From Octopus sinensis (lineage: Eukaryota): a stretch of DNA of 64,000 nucleotides. Each line of letters opens with the position of its first letter. The stretch's first letter is position 1. Location of the stretch: contig NC_043005.1 in the NCBI RefSeq assembly GCF_006345805.1, positions 57,102,001 to 57,166,000 of the forward strand, read 5' to 3'. Under the pieces are notes generated by a model. It saw only the letters and a list, made by a program, of their open reading frames with translations, had not been told where the DNA came from and searched no databases. The position numbers and the translations under genes were made by a program. Of this stretch, positions 10,116 to 64,000 are shown in pieces.

Positions 10116-10303
10116 TATTATATATATATATAAACAAAGATAAATGCGATACAATAAAATTAATTATAATCGCCGGTGTACCAGTACACGCCATATATTA
10201 GACATATATCATTACATTCAAGGCGAAGAGGTGTACTAGATACACAATAGCTGGATAAATTTCGTGTGAGATGAGGTTTAAAAACTTTTACAAACTTAAC
10301 TTT

Positions 10304-10375
10304 TCTTATACTGCAGTTTCGCCAAATTCAGTAATAAAAAATAGTATTTATTACTCAGGCGGGCTCTCAGTAAGA
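10304..10375 (-). ncRNA. Hammerhead ribozyme copy A (core one nt short, CUGAGA)
   Basis: Minus strand: tctta CTGAGA gcc...ggc GAAA CTGCAGT A taaga. Confidence 0.65.
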
Positions 10376-10703
10376 TTCTGTTAATGATGGAAAGACCATA
10401 CCATAGATCCATGTGCGTCTATCGAAATGCTCTTTCTAAACTATTCAAAACACTGCGCAGACTCCGAACAAACCGACAAAATAGGGGATTGTGGTATATC
10501 GTCTAACGGTCAGAAATTTATCGAGAGAATATGTAAACAAGATAAATGCGATACAATAAAATTAATTATAATCGCCGGTGTACCAGTACACGCCATATAT
10601 TATACATATATCATTACATTCAAGGCGAAGAGTGTACTAGATACACAATAGCTGGATAAATTTCGTGAGATGAGGTTTAAAAAACTTTTACAAACTTAAC
10701 TTT

Positions 10704-10777
10704 TCTTATACTGCAGTTTCGCCAAAATTCAGTAATAAAAATAGTATTTATTTACTCAGGCTGGCTCTTCAGTAAGA
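10704..10777 (-). ncRNA. Hammerhead ribozyme copy B (intact core)
   Basis: Minus strand: tctta CTGAAGA GCCA..long hairpin..TGGC GAAA CTGCAGT A taaga; stem I 5 bp, stem III palindrome ACTGCAGT, GUA site. Confidence 0.9.
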
Positions 10778-10934
10778 TTCTGTTAATGATGGAAAGACCA
10801 TACCAATAGATCCATGTGCGTCTATCGAAATGCTCTTTCTAAACTATTCAAAACACTGCGCAGACTCCGAACAAACCCGACAAAATAGGGGATTGTGGTA
10901 TATCGTCTGTGGTATATATATATATATGTATATA

Positions 10935-11039: not shown

Positions 11040-14400
<3,361 letters not shown>

Positions 14401-21309: not shown

Positions 21310-22750
21310 TTATTGCTTTTGCACAGCTTCTAACGCTGGAGATGTACTACAGTGTCAGCTGTTCACTACCAGTGAACTAAGGTAACACCTTTTATTTTTC
21401 GAGTACCTTGCGGAGTATTCAAGTGGTTCCAAGCAGTGCTGTTTTCTGCAAGTGCTCCACCCTTATTGCAACCCCTATTTGTTCCACGTACTTCTCGAGA
21501 TTTTTGCTCACTGTTCTCAGGGCTCTGACATGTAGTGGTACCTTTTTCATCGACCACAACTGCTTAACTCCCCAAGTTAACCTGTCATATCTCTCGACTT
21601 TTCTTTCTTCTTTATCGCATACCTTGTTGTCAACTGGGCATGATATGTCTATGATCCAGCATAGTTTGTTTTCTTTCTCAATTAAGACTATGTCCGGCTT
21701 ACTATTCTCATTCTCATGGTTGCACTGAATCATAAAATCTGATAGGATCTTTGCATTTCTATTTTCGACAATGCTTTCAGGTTTGTGGTCATACCAATTT
21801 TTTGCTCTGTCAAGTCCATACTTGTTGCAAAGTGTCCAATGGACAAGCCTGGCTATACTGTCGTGGGGTCTCTTATATTTCTTCTGGGCTAGTAGCGTAC
21901 ATTGGCTGGTAATATGCCATACGGTTTCGCCATTTTGTCCATAGAGTCTGCACTTGTCACTTTCTGATGTGCTGTCTATTCTGCATTTTACGTAGTTTGT
22001 TTTTAGTACTTGCACTTGGCCAGTACAGATTAGAGCCCCCGTTTCCGGTTTTAAATCCCTTTTAGTCATCCACAGCCATCTTTTTTCTCTGTCTGTCTTA
22101 TCTTCAGCATCCCTATGAAATTGACCATGCATTCTTTTCTTTATACACCTATTTTCAGTTTCATTCGTTTTCAATTGCTTGTATAGTGCTTTATTTTTGC
22201 AATCTTTCATCCTACACAAGCGTGACCTTCTTACTTCTAGCAATAGCGGTTCTGTGGAATTTTTTTTTATTTACAATGCTATGTTGTTTTCTTCTGCTCT
22301 AATGCTGTGTTTGCATTCAATAAGGAGGCAAACCTCTTGTAACAGTTCTGCTGAGCACTCTATTCTAATTTCTTTTATATTCCTCTTGATGCCTTCTGAT
22401 ACTGTTCCCCAAAACCCAACAATAACTGGCGCTATCTTCCCCTTATTCATTTTCCATAGCCGGGCTATTTTGTGCTTAAGAGGGTTGTATTTATCTAGCT
22501 TTTCTCCATCCTACTTGACTATTCGTATACATCAGTTATATAGCATATGTGGTACACCATGTCCACCACTAGCACAGGTCTGTTATGCTCTAGCACCTGA
22601 TCTGTTTGGATTGGGAAATTCCAGAGGATTTTGCTAGTCTCCGACTCCACCACTCTCTGCGGTTTGTGCTCATACCACGTCTTGCCTCTCTCTAGCCCCC
22701 ACTTTTCACACCGGCCAAAGCACCTGACATTAGTTTCCACAGTAGTGTAT
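21310..22750 (-). mobile_element. R4/Dong-like RLE LINE 3' fragments (two copies) in (TAA)n
   Basis: HGQF, LKPETGALI..Q, CR......ETVWHI...C zinc knuckle, RHD-like PHDSIA, KPDIVL..IIDISCP (restriction-like endonuclease), LQKTALLGT; second copy 22330-22750 has KILWNFPIQTD..HNRP. Confidence 0.88.
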
Positions 22751-29329: not shown

Positions 29330-31092
29330 AGAAAGATTGACTGATGTATTTTGTTGCGAGTTTGCAGTGGAAGGTTAGAGGTGGTATCCCGGGATGGAAG
29401 GTGCGTGCAACAAGATGGCTCAGAAGACGAGAAAACGTTGTAGCATAAAGAAGCAGTGAGAAGAAATAGTGCTGCAGTAGCTTGTTGTTGTTGTTAGTCT
29501 CAAGACCGACGGTGAATGGCGTTCTGACTGTAAATGCGTCAGTATGGACATGGAGCAACCACAATGGGTCATCCAGATCGTATCTAAATAGCGTATTTGT
29601 TAGGTCAGAGAATAGGGATATGAGTCAATTGCAAGGGGCTAAAATCAACGCCGACAAACCGGTTGGTTTGCAGTTGGACTCTTGGAGAGGCAGGACGATA
29701 CCATCGGACGGAATCGTCGGACGCTGGACCGACGGTCCAGTTAAAGTACTCGGAGTCTGGTTTGGTTCCAACCTCCATGTTGATAAGAACTGAGACGAGG
29801 TGGCGAACAGGGTAGCCAGTCTTACCCAGAGATGGTCTGAAAGAAAGCCGTCCCTGAAAGGTCGGGCAGATGTGGCGAAAGCTTACGTCGCCTCCGTTAT
29901 CATTTATTGCCTGACCGTCGTGTCTGGTCCCGGTTACTGCTTGAACAGGTTGGAGAGAATCTTATTTAAATTCTTGTGGAAGGGATGCGTTCCAATGGTC
30001 AGGCGATCAGTCTGTTGCCAGCACCCTTTGAGTGGCGGATTAGGTATGTCGTGGCTCCTAATGCGTAGACAGGCTCTTAGGTTACGCCACTTGCAGCGAT
30101 TTCTGGGCGGTGAGCGCATGTGGGCTCCGTTTGTGACGGAGCTGCAGTACTGGTCGAAGAAAAGACCGAGACTGGGTGCCTGGTACCTAGAATGTCGTCA
30201 GGCGCTCACAACCTTAGCGACGGGGAAGTGCGAGGACGTTCTCGAGGAGACTCTGGGCGCCGACGAGAAGGAACTGGCTAGTCCGTTCCGGAGGACTTTC
30301 CGGTCGGGAACTATCATGGATAATTTCCAGATGACCTTGGGTTGGCAGTGCTACCGAGGGGCGCTACTGGTTCGGGATAAACTCTACAGGCACAGAATGA
30401 CGAAACCGTTCTGCACGCATTCGTTTAATGTCCGGGCATTGCTGACTTGTGGGGTTATGTTGAACAGCTGCTGTAACCTGTGGGACGGACCTGTCTGTCG
30501 GCCGAGTCTGTAGCGATAATCGCACCGCCGCCCTCCTTCAATCGGGCAAGCAAGGCAGTTTTCCTTAGCCTGGTGGCTGTGGCGAAAGAGGCTATTTGGT
30601 GGACCAGGTTGAAATGCATGAGGACAGATACATTTCTCTTGGGCAGAGCTCTCATTAACTTTTTCAAGTTTCACTTGAAAAGGAAATGGAGACTGGAGAG
30701 GGAAGTGCTGTCCTCGAGTTAGCTTACTGAACGGTGGGTGAATGTTACGAAAATGGGAAGAGTAGATTGTACCTTTCTAAGCGTAGACCTGTGAGTTGGA
30801 GAAAAGGAATTGGAGCGGGCAGGTGCTCCTAGGATTTCAGGTAAATCTCGGACAGTGGGAGTTCCTCGATTATCTCAAGAGGCCTGCATGTATCAGGAGG
30901 GCCACATCGCCATCATCCTCCCCGGATATTTTTTATTTACCTTTGTATGCTATGCATATGCCCCTTCTTTTTCAGTGTATACCGAGTATATTCACTTTTT
31001 TAATCATTTCATTATTATATGTAAATCCCCACACTTTATGTCTGCTTCTGTTTAGTCCCACTCATCCTTCCCCCTAGTGGCAAATAAATGAA

Positions 31093-33381: not shown

Positions 33382-34662
33382 ACAGAGTGTCCCAGGAAGA
33401 TTTACCCACGTTTAAAACTCTTTCTAAAGATTATCGGTTCAGGTAATATTGTCTACATTTTACATAAAGATTTGCAAACATCTTTTGTTCATGTGGTTGT
33501 TGTTTCGTTCATCTATAACAATTTTGTAAACAAACATGGTGTCGAAAGCAAAACATGATCAGATTGCCGCTTTGAAAGCAGCGGGAGTGAGCAACAAGGT
33601 CATAACAAAATAGTTAAATGTGTGCCGTAAAACAGTGTTCAATGCTTGAAAACGATATATGGAGACCGCTACTACCTCCAGCGATCAATTCATACCAAAT
33701 AAACTGTTGAGACTGTGAAAATGCGAATGAACCGAAATCCCCGTTGGAGCGCAAGAAATACTGCAAAAGTTCTTGATATTTCGAAATCGTCAATGCACAG
33801 GATTTTTAAAGAGGATTTAAAGCTAACTACAAACAAGAAACAGACCCGGCAGTTAATTTCAGCAGCTTCAAAGAAGAAACGGCTCGACAGGAGTAAAACC
33901 AAGTTAGCTGAGAAGAAGTGCGCCGCTAACAAAGTGTTGATCTGGTCCGACGAGATGATCTTCACCGTGGAGGCAGTTACCAACAGGCAGAATGATAGGC
34001 TTTATACACGTAATGCAGGAGACTTGCCAGAAGGTAGCAGGAGTCATTTACGCGATCAAAAGCCAGCTTCACTCATAGTGTGGGCTGCAGTTGCATCTGA
34101 TGGGTGCAGGTCTCACTTGCTCTTCGTTAATGCTGGCGTCAAGGTCAACAGTGAAGTTTATGTGAAAATGCTGGATGAGAAAGTGTTGCCTTGGGTCACA
34201 CAGAAAACTTTGATGACCGTTGAATCTTCACTCAGGATGGGTCTCCGGCCTATATATCCAATTTGACACAGAGGTAGTACAAAGAGCATTTCAGCAGTTT
34301 GGGGGACAAGACAATATGGCCTCCTTCAAGTTCAGACATCAATCCCATGGACTTTGCCGCCTGGTCCATCTTAGAGAGTAATGTTTCTGCTCGTTCCTAT
34401 TCAAATGTGTCAGATTTGAAGGAAGCCCTAGTCTTCATGGGTCAAGTTGAATAAAGAGGTGGCACGGCGCTCATGCAACTCAGTGACCACTTGTTTGCAA
34501 GCTATGACCATGGCGAAAGGTGATTTTGAAACGTAACTCCTGCAACGGACTGAGAATTTATATATAATGACTTGTGAATGAAAGGTAGTTCAATGTGTCC
34601 CAATAAATTTCATTTCATATCTTCGTGTTTTTCGTTGTTAGAGGCAAATAATCACGTTATGT
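33382..34662 (+). mobile_element. Tc1/mariner element, maT/DD37D-like, decayed
   Basis: IWSDEMIF..NRQNDRLY, VWAAVASDG, TQDGSPA, WPPSSSDINPMDFAAW (third catalytic residue D); starts TA|CAGAGTGTCCC. Confidence 0.8.
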
Positions 34663-54953: not shown

Positions 54954-55000
54954 CAGACCAGCCTAGTTTCGGGCTATTTCTTGCCGCTCTTCAGTACTGG
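54954..55000 (-). ncRNA. Decayed hammerhead motif
   Basis: Minus strand: cagta CTGAAGA GcGGC aagaaata GCCC GAAA CTAGG C tgg; conserved U16.1 replaced. Confidence 0.5.
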
Positions 55001-60398: not shown

Positions 60399-60740
60399 AA
60401 CATTATCGACGTGCATACTCATTGTATGTGCTTTGCTCGTTCGCCAGTACGCTGCGGCATAGCACTGAGGGGTTGACTCCCTCAAAGCACTGAGTGTTAA
60501 AACACCTGAAAGTCGTAGACAGGCGAGACAATTCACCTCTAATCCCACTCAGGATCAATGAATACTGATATTTCGCCGCTCCTGAATGGGATTAGGGATG
60601 AATTGTCTCGCCTGTTTATGACTATCAGGTGTTTTAACACCCACCGCTTTGTAGGAGTCATCCTTGTCGCGCTACATTCGCAGCATACCGGTGAAAAAAC
60701 GAAAAAAGCTATATTGAGTATGTACGGTCGATAACGTTTA
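60398..60740. repeat. ~340-bp imperfect foldback
   Basis: GTGTTAAAACACCTGA..GGCGAGACAATTCA..AATCCCA.TCAGGA versus TCCTGA.TGGGATT..TGAATTGTCTCGCC..TCAGGTGTTTTAACAC. Confidence 0.85.
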
Positions 60741-60849: not shown

Positions 60850-60907
<58 letters not shown>

Positions 60908-60908
<1 letters not shown>

Positions 60909-61650
60909 TAGCAGTACCGCCCGGCGTTGCTCGGGTTTGTAAGGGAAATAACTATAAAGCATTTTTAGAGAGTTATAGCCAAAAAATGGGGAAAAAATTA
61001 TGGTAAATTTTTTTAGTTAAAAAGGTCGAGTTGCGTCCCCTAGACAGTCTGTGGTTTGTGTTTCTAATTCTCGACCCCATGTCGAATTTATCGATTTTTT
61101 TCAGAACTGGGGGAACTTTTCAAAATTTTCGCTGCGTTAGTTTTGAATTATGACATTGGGCTATGTGTGTGTCAAGTTTCATCAGAATCGGTTGAAAGCC
61201 GTGGTCAGGGTGAGGGTACAACCTAACAGACACACAGAAACACACACAGACAAACTGCCGTTTATATATAGACTAGCAGTATCGCCCGGCGTTGCTCAGG
61301 TTTGTAAGGGAAATAACTATAAAGCATTTTTAGAGAGTTATAGCCAAAAAATTGCAAAAAAATGGAAAAAAATGATGGTAAATTTTTTTTTAGTTAAAAA
61401 AGGTGGAGTTGCGTCCCCTAGACAATTTGCGGTTTGTGTTTCTGATTCTCGACCCCATGTCGAATTTATCGATATTTTTCAGAACTGGGGGAACTTTTAA
61501 AAATTTTCGCTGCGTTTGTTTTGAATTATGACATTGGGCTATGTGTGTGTCAAGTTTCATCAGAATCGGTTGAAAGCCGTGGTCAGGGTGAGGGTACAAG
61601 CAAACAGACACACAGAAACACGCACAGACAAACTGCCGTTTATATATAGA
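60908..61650 (-). mobile_element. Head-to-tail dimer of a non-autonomous Helitron (60908-61272, 61273-61650)
   Basis: Minus strand: 5' TCTATATATAAA, 3' CCCGAGCAACGCCGGG hairpin + CTAG; junction CTAG|TC. Confidence 0.85.
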
Positions 61651-62118: not shown

Positions 62119-62187
<69 letters not shown>

Positions 62188-62394
62188 GTGAAATAGAAAG
62201 ATGAATAATCTTGTAGTAGATTAATCAAAAGTTTAACCGATACCTTAGTAGCAAAAATCACAGCAGTAAACAGCACGGTTGGAGGTACAACCATCTGGCG
62301 TTGCAACCGTGCGTTGGTGCGGATAATTGAAATTAAAACATTATTGGTGAATTGAAGAAATGGAGCTGAACGCAGATTGAACAGAAATCGTTTT

Positions 62395-62483
62395 ATTTCA
62401 TTCTACACGTGTTTCGAAAGGCACAAATTACCAAAATCCGATTGAATAATGGGACCATATTGTGTCTTTCTCTTCAGGAAGAA
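62395..62483 (-). ncRNA. Hammerhead ribozyme
   Basis: Minus strand: ttcttc CTGAAGA GAAAGaCACAA...TTGTGcCTTTC GAAA CACGTGT A gaatgaa; stem III palindrome ACACGTGT. Confidence 0.85.
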
Positions 62484-62803
62484 AAAAGGAAATCCGTTGG
62501 AAAAACAAAAACAGAACAGTGGCGGAGCAAAAACAAATCGAACTACGCTCCTAAGAGCCCATGGCGAAACTGTTTATCAGTGTATGTTGAGAACCGGTGG
62601 CTGAAGAATTCAACGGGTCAGGCATCGGTCAATCATGTGGGTGAGGGCGTATAGATGTTCTTAGTGACCGAGAATAAAGTTCTGACTATTTAAGGAATAT
62701 TGGATGTTTTATAAGGGGCGAAAAAAAACCTACTTAGAGACGTGTGTGTGTGTATACTGTTCTATATATGTGTGTGTTGGCGTAGGGGTAGAAAACATTT
62801 TTT

Positions 62804-64000
62804 GTGTACGTGTGTGCGTTTGATCGTTCGGCTGTCAGTGGCTACTGCCGAGAGAACCGTTGGGTGGCAGAAAGAAAAAAAAAAATATATATTATGTTTT
62901 ATGTGTGTGTGTGTTCATCTAAGCCTGCCTTGTCAAGGAAACCCCCCGCTGTGAAAAAACCAAGCCCCGTTTGTCTTACAGGAGTAATTCCCCTTGCAGT
63001 GGTTAATCGTAGATATCTTAAAGGCTATTTCAGAATTTGTTACCAAGGGCTATGGGTGCCGGTATTATTTATAAATAGGGGTGTTGTGGTTGACGGTAAC
63101 AATGGGAGTAGGGTAGTGAGCCCCAATAGCATCCCCAGCATCATTTCCCGCAATAGCAGCACCACGGGCAGTAGCAATGACAGCACTCTGATAGATAGTG
63201 GAGAATCAGGGGTTATTCCTATAGTTAATAGTGACGTAGTGGAAAATAGAGTAGTAAGCGGCTGCAGGTCTCGGAACGAATATAGTGACAGGAACGCAGT
63301 TCTAATTTCAGAAACTAATCCTAGCAGAATAAGATTCACGTCGGCGAACTCCAAGATCAAAAACGCCGTCTACCAATGCAAGGTTTACACGGACTCAGAT
63401 GTCTTCACTTATGTAGGGGCATCATCCTCAAGATTGTCTTTGCGTGTCTCCAACCATTACGCAACTTTTCGGGACATGAACAAGCGCCAGACCACGGGAC
63501 TCAGTAAGCTAATATGGCGACTGAAGGATACGAACTTAAGCTATAGGCTGGAATGGTCAATTTTGTCGGTGGCCCTCCCATTGATAGGGGCAGAAGACAG
63601 TGCAACCTTTGTGTCTCCGAACTCTTCCATATTTTGTTTGCCAGAGGCCGGATGGTAAACGGGCTCTTACAGTCGGCTCTTCGATGCCCCCATTGGCGGC
63701 GTTACACTTATCTGGCTTTTAAATAGCGTTTATAAATAATACCGGCACCCATAGCCCTTGGTAACAAATTCTGAAATAGCCTTTAAGATATCTACGATTA
63801 ACCACTGCAAGGGGAATTACTCCTGTAAGACAAACGGGGCTTGGTTTTTTCACAGCGGGGGGTTTCCTTGACAAGGCAGGCTTAGATGAACACACACACA
63901 CATAAAACATAATATATATATATTTTTTTCTTTCTGCCACCCAACGGTTCTCTCGGCAGTTGCCACTGACAGCCGAACGATCAAACGCACACACGTACAC
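62804..64000. repeat. Inverted repeat arms 62804-63075 / 63729-64000 (inverted pLTR-like; runs off the window)
   Basis: Near-identical 272-bp reverse complement, also visible as twin ORFs in the track. Confidence 0.92.
63076..63726 (+). pseudogene. Penelope-type GIY-YIG endonuclease, one frameshift near 63580
   Basis: NAVYQC..TYVGASSSRLSLRVSNHYATF..TGLSKLIWRLKD....EWSIL, then shifted frame RQCNLCVSELFHI...VN......RCPH, stop at 63724-63726. Confidence 0.85.

Follow-up and report, generated by a model that had tools for sequence, protein, structure and literature searches.

A probable 5'-truncated, inverted insertion of an abundant Hydra-related Penelope-like element in a (TA)n tract of an octopus genome

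Layout of the locus

The window analyzed here, a 64-kb stretch of microsatellite-rich, animal-type DNA with a GC content of about 37%, contains a (TA)n tract at 62135–62181, preceded by a (CA)n run. The tract, which had been reported in a first-pass annotation of this DNA, is followed by an apparent minus-strand copy of the 3' end of a Penelope-like element (PLE; its pseudo-LTR, or pLTR, and 3' UTR) at 62184–63075, a fragment of coding body from 63069, and the start of the sense-strand 3' UTR or pLTR at 63727–64000. The arms at 62804–63075 and 63729–64000 match in inverted orientation at 269 of 272 nucleotides, with two of the three mismatches lying within an A/TA run. The inverted match annotated earlier is therefore real; however, 272 nt is only the portion that is mirrored inside the window, and the full left arm likely spans 62184–63075, approximately 890 nt. 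The segment 62184–62803 has the highest depth of the family in all four public sequencing runs examined and terminates at the (TA)n, and from the mirror match together with this depth we infer that 62184–63075 is one continuous inverted 3' end. On the sense strand the 3' UTR is predicted to continue for about 620 nt beyond the window, giving a predicted length of about 895 nt, and one contig (record 32 of run X3) bridges the nuclease and the UTR up to 63889. There is no second copy of the 62184–64000 family within the 64-kb window.

The inversion junction is marked by the palindrome TTTATAAA at 63068–63075, a second copy of which is at 63729–63736, as the first-pass annotation had described for the ends of the arms. 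The nucleotides at 63069–63075 are common to the inverted arm and the sense body and constitute a 7-nt microhomology. The alignments of two contigs (X2 record 20 and X3 record 32) begin at 63069, and the sequence before this position differs. At the other end of the body the stop codon TAG (63724–63726) is followed by 2 nt and then by the arm from 63729, also as annotated. We considered whether an arm starting 2 nt past the stop represents a designed boundary, and rejected this reading because in other copies the junctions are scattered between 62258 and 62983. At 62851 the two arms have the same minority letter, from which 90% of the X2 depth differs, and this fits their derivation from a single template.

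A type I hammerhead motif is present on the minus strand at 62392–62487, with its core at 62404–62477, a loop II of 33 nt, and a short palindromic stem III. All of the core letters are present (CUGAAGA at 62471–62477, GAAA, and the GUA cleavage triplet ending at 62404), stem II (62460–62470/62416–62426) has 10 pairs with one A-C mismatch, stem III has 2–3 bp and lies inside the palindrome, and stem I is bulged; cleavage is predicted between 62404 and 62403, about 220 nt from the element end. The motif descriptor matched one of 2000 dinucleotide shuffles of 62183–64000 and has two matches across the 64-kb window. The motif had been called an intact hammerhead, and this description applies to the sequence only, because the free fold retains stem II and loses the core, with z = −0.5 over a 121-nt stretch; the fold constrained to the hammerhead is 3.4 kcal/mol less stable than the free fold. 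An Rfam scan gave no hammerhead match, probably because loop II is 33 nt, and returned only microsatellite-driven miRNA matches, all under the gathering score. A search of metagenome data with the hammerhead pattern gave no matches.

The motif sits in the inverted arm and is thus sense relative to the 3' UTR, and a mirrored sense-strand hammerhead is predicted to lie beyond the end of the window, at +321 to +409. It resembles the PLE hammerheads described by Cervera and de la Pena (2014, PMC4209133) in being of type I, with a long helix II and a short palindromic helix III, for which action as a dimer is expected, and it differs from them in its unusually long loop II, which can itself fold, and in having no Rfam match. 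By analogy with these ribozymes, the short palindromic stem III suggests that cleavage would be efficient only as a dimer in tandem transcripts; a head-to-head copy places its two hammerheads on opposite strands, so they presumably would not pair within one transcript. Three X10 contigs show (TA)n adjoining 62334–62340, suggesting that there is a further 3' terminus, roughly 150 nt internal to the main one and some 65 nt beyond the cut site of the hammerhead.

Several other repeats are present elsewhere in the window. On the minus strand at 10133–10912, between two (TA)n tracts, a unit of approximately 402 nt is repeated head to tail in about 1.9 copies, the second of which has a full type I hammerhead (core 10709–10772, long loop II) and the first a degenerate core; this tandem is unrelated by BLASTN to the 62184–64000 family, and looks like a non-LTR retrozyme or a PLE pLTR tandem. 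A hammerhead-like core with a broken stem II (54956–54994, minus strand) failed the strict descriptor. Two head-to-tail repeat copies at 60898–61650, about 94% alike and with a spacing of 365–378 nt, start right after a (TA)n, and a MITE-like inverted repeat of 84 nt lies at 60471–60663 (86% complementarity, copies separated by 25 nt). Open frames that are partial or contain frameshifts are found in 11050–13175, 21422–22270, 29794–30510 and 33703–34263; judging by eye, we take these to be a LINE (AP endonuclease plus reverse transcriptase [RT]), fragments of two more LINEs, and a transposase of the Tc1/mariner type.

The coding body and its protein relatives

The sense-strand coding body begins with an S/N-rich remnant of the linker between RT and endonuclease (EN), cut on its 5' side (63069–63292), followed by a cysteine-free motif at 63293–63370 and a GIY-YIG core at 63362–63580. 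The core has VY..YVG and the conserved R and H; it contains a single Cys and has no CxxC between the GIY and YIG motifs, and the internal CCHH is therefore absent. A 1-nt frameshift at 63578–63582 separates the core, whose frame ends at a stop at 63656–63658, from a nuclease tail at 63583–63726 containing a CxxC, the conserved E and N, a CxH, and the stop codon, as judged by eye against Fig. S7 of PMC8557442. The nuclease R and H are thus in the core frame in the window copy and the E and N are out of frame, such that the frameshift near 63580 removes the catalytic E and N. No in-frame ATG is present between the junction and the nuclease.

The first-pass annotation described an S/N-rich leader joined to a GIY-YIG nuclease with a CxxC..CxH tail, and all of these parts exist, but the tail is out of frame with the core; both the missing start codon and the frameshift between core and tail were overlooked. 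It also described about 95 residues before the nuclease as being of low complexity. This is true of about 72 of the approximately 99 residues, whereas the last 26 or so form a motif that is conserved in relatives. The frame is open at 63580 in many other copies, accounting for 105332 of 130383 of the depth in X2 (81%), 151 of 271 in X10 (56%), 292 of 25471 in X1 (1%), and the one contig of one in X3, and a loose end at 63581 in X1 is compatible with the same extra base. The frameshift in the window may be private, shared, or an assembly error.

The window protein has no Pfam match, with two pieces giving only a low-complexity hit (E 0.17), but PF01541, the GIY-YIG family, is weakly matched by 8 of 50 aligned relatives at E ≤ 0.1. 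The top Atlas match is a GIY-YIG cluster (0.91), and an AlphaFold model of the nuclease (pLDDT 87) ranked T4 EndoII (Z 6.1) and I-TevI (Z 5.3) first, both of these scores being middling. Foldseek searches with the model returned nothing at E ≤ 0.001; seven of the top ten rows are what we take to be the GIY-YIG enzymes Hpy188I and T4 EndoII. A PDB sequence-profile search gave one chance-level match (E 0.35). Sequence and model together indicate that the window nuclease is probably of the GIY-YIG type, with its R, H, E and N residues.

A phmmer search identified 700 relatives at E ≤ 0.001, the two best of which are Octopus sinensis records, in keeping with a likely octopus host. Among the closest relatives, P0152 (XP_036366068.1; 544 aa, O. 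sinensis) shares 51% identity with the window frame across 136 aa (pairwise E 7e-41) and contains in one protein the RT motifs MGSSDS, YRDD and FLDVTL, a thumb, a Hydra-type WF..PF linker block, an N/S-rich stretch, and the nuclease. By eye, its RT and linker blocks resemble the Hydra rows in Fig. S7 of PMC8557442; a Pfam search with the P0152 RT gave nothing at E ≤ 0.1. P0152 represents a sister family, and is a gene model that diverges from the nuclease at its end. In P0002 the shared leader likewise continues into a WF..PF linker block, and the alignment of the window leader with the P0152 and P0002 linkers identifies it as the distal part of an RT-EN linker. The Hydra-clade RT is marked by RWK and DKT motifs and by having no IFD; among related proteins of 600–1000 aa, RW[KR] is present in 22 of 29 and DK[TS] in 27 of 29, and the N-terminal RT of the window family itself is not among them. 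A match to P0005, a repeat protein of 5692 aa, was dropped as spurious. The Octopus gene models P0152, P0002, P0003, P0153 and P0161 are named kinase-like, myb-like or GATA-like, and appear to be PLE fragments with Asn-rich linkers. Metagenome scans gave 158 stretches, none of which was confirmed.

Origin of the insertion

The stretch is contained wholly or partly in 20 of 24 listed public runs, with at least half of its words in 19, and the runs in which it occurs carry five organism labels plus one small-share metagenome. Four runs were aligned in detail, among them X1, X2, X3 (whose nature as RNA is a guess) and X10, yielding 8974 aligned contigs in X1 and 3039 in X2, mostly at ≥95% identity. 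The summed depth at the 3' (hammerhead) end is approximately 10 times that of the linker plus nuclease in X1 and 3 times in X2, and although depth is not equivalent to copy number, this rise toward the 3' end is as 5' truncation predicts; the zero depth at 63891–64000 reflects a repeat skipped in the alignment and not absence. Among the rows listed, (TA)n adjoins 62184 in at least nine contigs of X1, at least one of X3 and at least one of X10, and thus in three of the four runs. Sixteen joints were found, and in 12 of the 15 listed the left arm meets the sense body, at a position that differs from joint to joint; these 12 come from three runs and have overlaps of 0–5 nt or short inserts. A single joint is weak evidence because its sides are only 22–34 nt, and it is the inverted arms, these 12 joints and the depth gradient together that support a pLTR with variable 5' truncation.

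The contig X3 record 32 is 2534 nt long, matches 63069–63889 with six substitutions and one gap (99% identical), and has the frame open at 63580. It contains a further 1651 nt 5' of 63069, known by length and not by letters; our reading of such record coordinates was verified on X3 record 29 and X10 record 9. From the spacing in P0152, a YRDD would be expected about 1.0 kb upstream, and the 1651-nt extension would reach the RT core. This record also has a 27-nt match to 62398–62424 in the inverted hammerhead region, at a distance that is not given, which we take to be the distal end of a truncated copy of greater length, although it may be a direct join followed by flank.

We consider it very likely that the locus is a frameshifted, probably dead, 5'-truncated and inverted insertion of an abundant Hydra-related PLE that would normally encode RT and a GIY-YIG nuclease in one protein. 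Ordinary truncation is the most likely explanation because P0152 has an RT, the 99%-identical contig runs on for 1651 nt, the junctions vary, and depth rises toward the 3' end. The first-pass annotation had offered two readings, and the first of these, a 5'-truncated, inverted PLE with an upstream inverted pLTR, is supported by the arms, the junction, the missing ATG, the variable junctions, the longer contig and the RT of P0152. The RT is presumably encoded by the window's own family. We refer to the family as Hydra-related and not as a strict member of that clade because it lacks the CxCx5C linker.

The second reading, that of an endonuclease-only PLE derivative with an RT supplied in trans, is unlikely; such a family would be non-autonomous, and its copies would share one 5' end near 63069. 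This reading accords with the lack of an RT of this family in the window's long ORFs, with an X2 depth that does not drop toward 63100, and with the failure to find an RT-bearing protein near-identical to the window nuclease (0 of 472 candidates of 225–2000 aa; 1 of 47 near-length candidates), and the sole joint to 63069 might represent another insertion that shares this 5' end. However, with the ATG absent and the nuclease frame broken the window copy has no translatable EN ORF of its own, the RT is in frame with the nuclease in the sister family P0152, the X3 contig continues well past the supposed 5' end, and none of the 11 arm-to-body joints listed from X1 and X2 is at 63069.

It is more improbable still that the inverted arm is chimeric, put together in the assembly from pieces of a high-copy repeat, and not part of one insertion. 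Although the family is very abundant, none of the contigs listed spans the window's own junction, and the 1-nt deletion could be a long-read error, the same geometry is seen at 12 other breakpoints in three runs and matches the published PLE pattern (PMC8557442, PMC3846280), and the two arms differ at three sites yet share the minority letter. Least probable of all is a DNA element with terminal inverted repeats carrying a GIY-YIG nuclease, for although long inverted arms with a 99% match do flank the nuclease gene, the inner arm ends differ among copies, the depth gradient is 3'-biased, the locus contains a hammerhead, and RT is encoded in the relatives.

A truncated, inverted PLE insertion of this kind most likely arose when the RT-EN protein of an intact copy nicked the (TA)n tract, and reverse transcription of the element RNA began from its 3' end and halted in the RT-EN linker at 63069–63075. 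A second cDNA, comprising approximately 890 nt of the same 3' end, might have started from the other target strand or from the palindrome folding back on itself, and the two cDNAs would then have been joined head to head via the 7-nt microhomology, leaving element 3' ends as both outer ends within (TA)n. The hammerhead would be a 3' UTR motif of the family, with presumed ribozyme activity.

A model for the mechanism is PAc, a Poseidon element of Anolis carolinensis, for which cutting of AT-rich DNA, and both cutting and extension of the two target strands, are reported in vitro (Frangieh et al. 2024, PMC11167929). It provides precedents for AT-rich cleavage, extension of both strands, an internal RT start and a hammerhead in the pLTR; unlike the window family, PAc belongs to the Penelope/Poseidon clade, and in it the hammerhead and the start of the ORF overlap. 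We found no biochemical work on a Hydra-type element in the literature searched. The Pen2a, Pen3 and Pen4 elements of Adineta vaga (Arkhipova et al. 2013, PMC3846280) have similar head-to-head inverted pLTRs, junction palindromes, which are interpreted there as self-priming, and Asn-rich coding inserts between RT and EN. They differ in host and in being low-copy, whereas the window family is very abundant, and target site duplications are unreadable here within (TA)n.

The Hydra clade, as described in PMC8557442, includes inverted 5'-truncated copies and (TA)n targets, with Penelope-13_HM among the examples, as well as hammerheads and an octopus member. The window family shares with this clade (Hydra-1_Obim, Penelope-13_HM) a C-terminal GIY-YIG without CCHH; a CxxC and CxH around the E and N, here in the shifted frame at 63583–63723; a hammerhead near the 3' end, a (TA)n target and an inverted 5'-truncated copy; and the RT and linker blocks, here in the sister protein P0152. 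It is distinguished from the clade by its cysteine-free motif, since the CxCx5C is kept in all nine Hydra rows of Fig. S7 of that paper, by its loop II of 33 nt versus 3–10 nt in the Hydra rows of File S2, by its predicted 3' UTR of about 895 nt with the cut site about 220 nt from the end, and by a linker that is long and N/S-rich.

A probable cysteine-free linker lineage

The 32 residues that precede the nuclease Tyr contain no Cys, and the Hydra CxCx5C linker is thus missing from the window copy. The motif at its position (63293–63370) is common to P0152, P0003, P0002, P0004, P0006 and P0007. We mapped 192 relatives, dropping self and P0005, of which 155 extend for 30 residues or more ahead of the nuclease Tyr. 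A CxCx4-9C is present in 114 of these 155, and 21 have no Cys or one. Among the 21 are the six relatives with the best scores, and all six share the replacement motif of the window, which occupies the same place in the alignment as the zinc motif and has mostly retained the Pro of the latter; the other 15 look by eye like out-of-frame fragment starts.

A nuclease-core tree was built from 51 rows, comprising 45 of 95 zinc-bearing proteins, five cysteine-free ones (P0003 was omitted as a near-copy) and the window, with 73 columns and a midpoint root. The cysteine-free rows fall on one branch (97/86), which also includes the long-branched, zinc-bearing P0009. These data make it somewhat probable that a young octopus lineage of Hydra-type Penelope elements, itself very abundant, no longer has the CxCx5C zinc linker of its relatives, conserves a cysteine-free motif in its place, and still targets (TA)n. 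We did not find a cysteine-free Hydra-related lineage described in the parts of the literature searched. The O. vulgaris repeat library contains 31 recently active Penelope-like families (PMC13282606), and the family may already be present in it, in Repbase or in Dfam as an unnamed consensus.

The insertion itself is ordinary, with a published PLE structure, and the small gain is the lineage, which merits a brief mention in a PLE survey. The (TA)n insertions of Hydra elements were taken by Craig et al. (2021, PMC8557442) to support a connection of the zinc linker with targeting, and a linker-less Hydra relative in (TA)n is a direct test of that idea. The surprise is modest because Chlamys elements target microsatellites without such a linker (PMC8557442). 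If the loss is true, the lineage would be a natural knock-out, and the CxCx5C linker would not be what directs microsatellite targeting.
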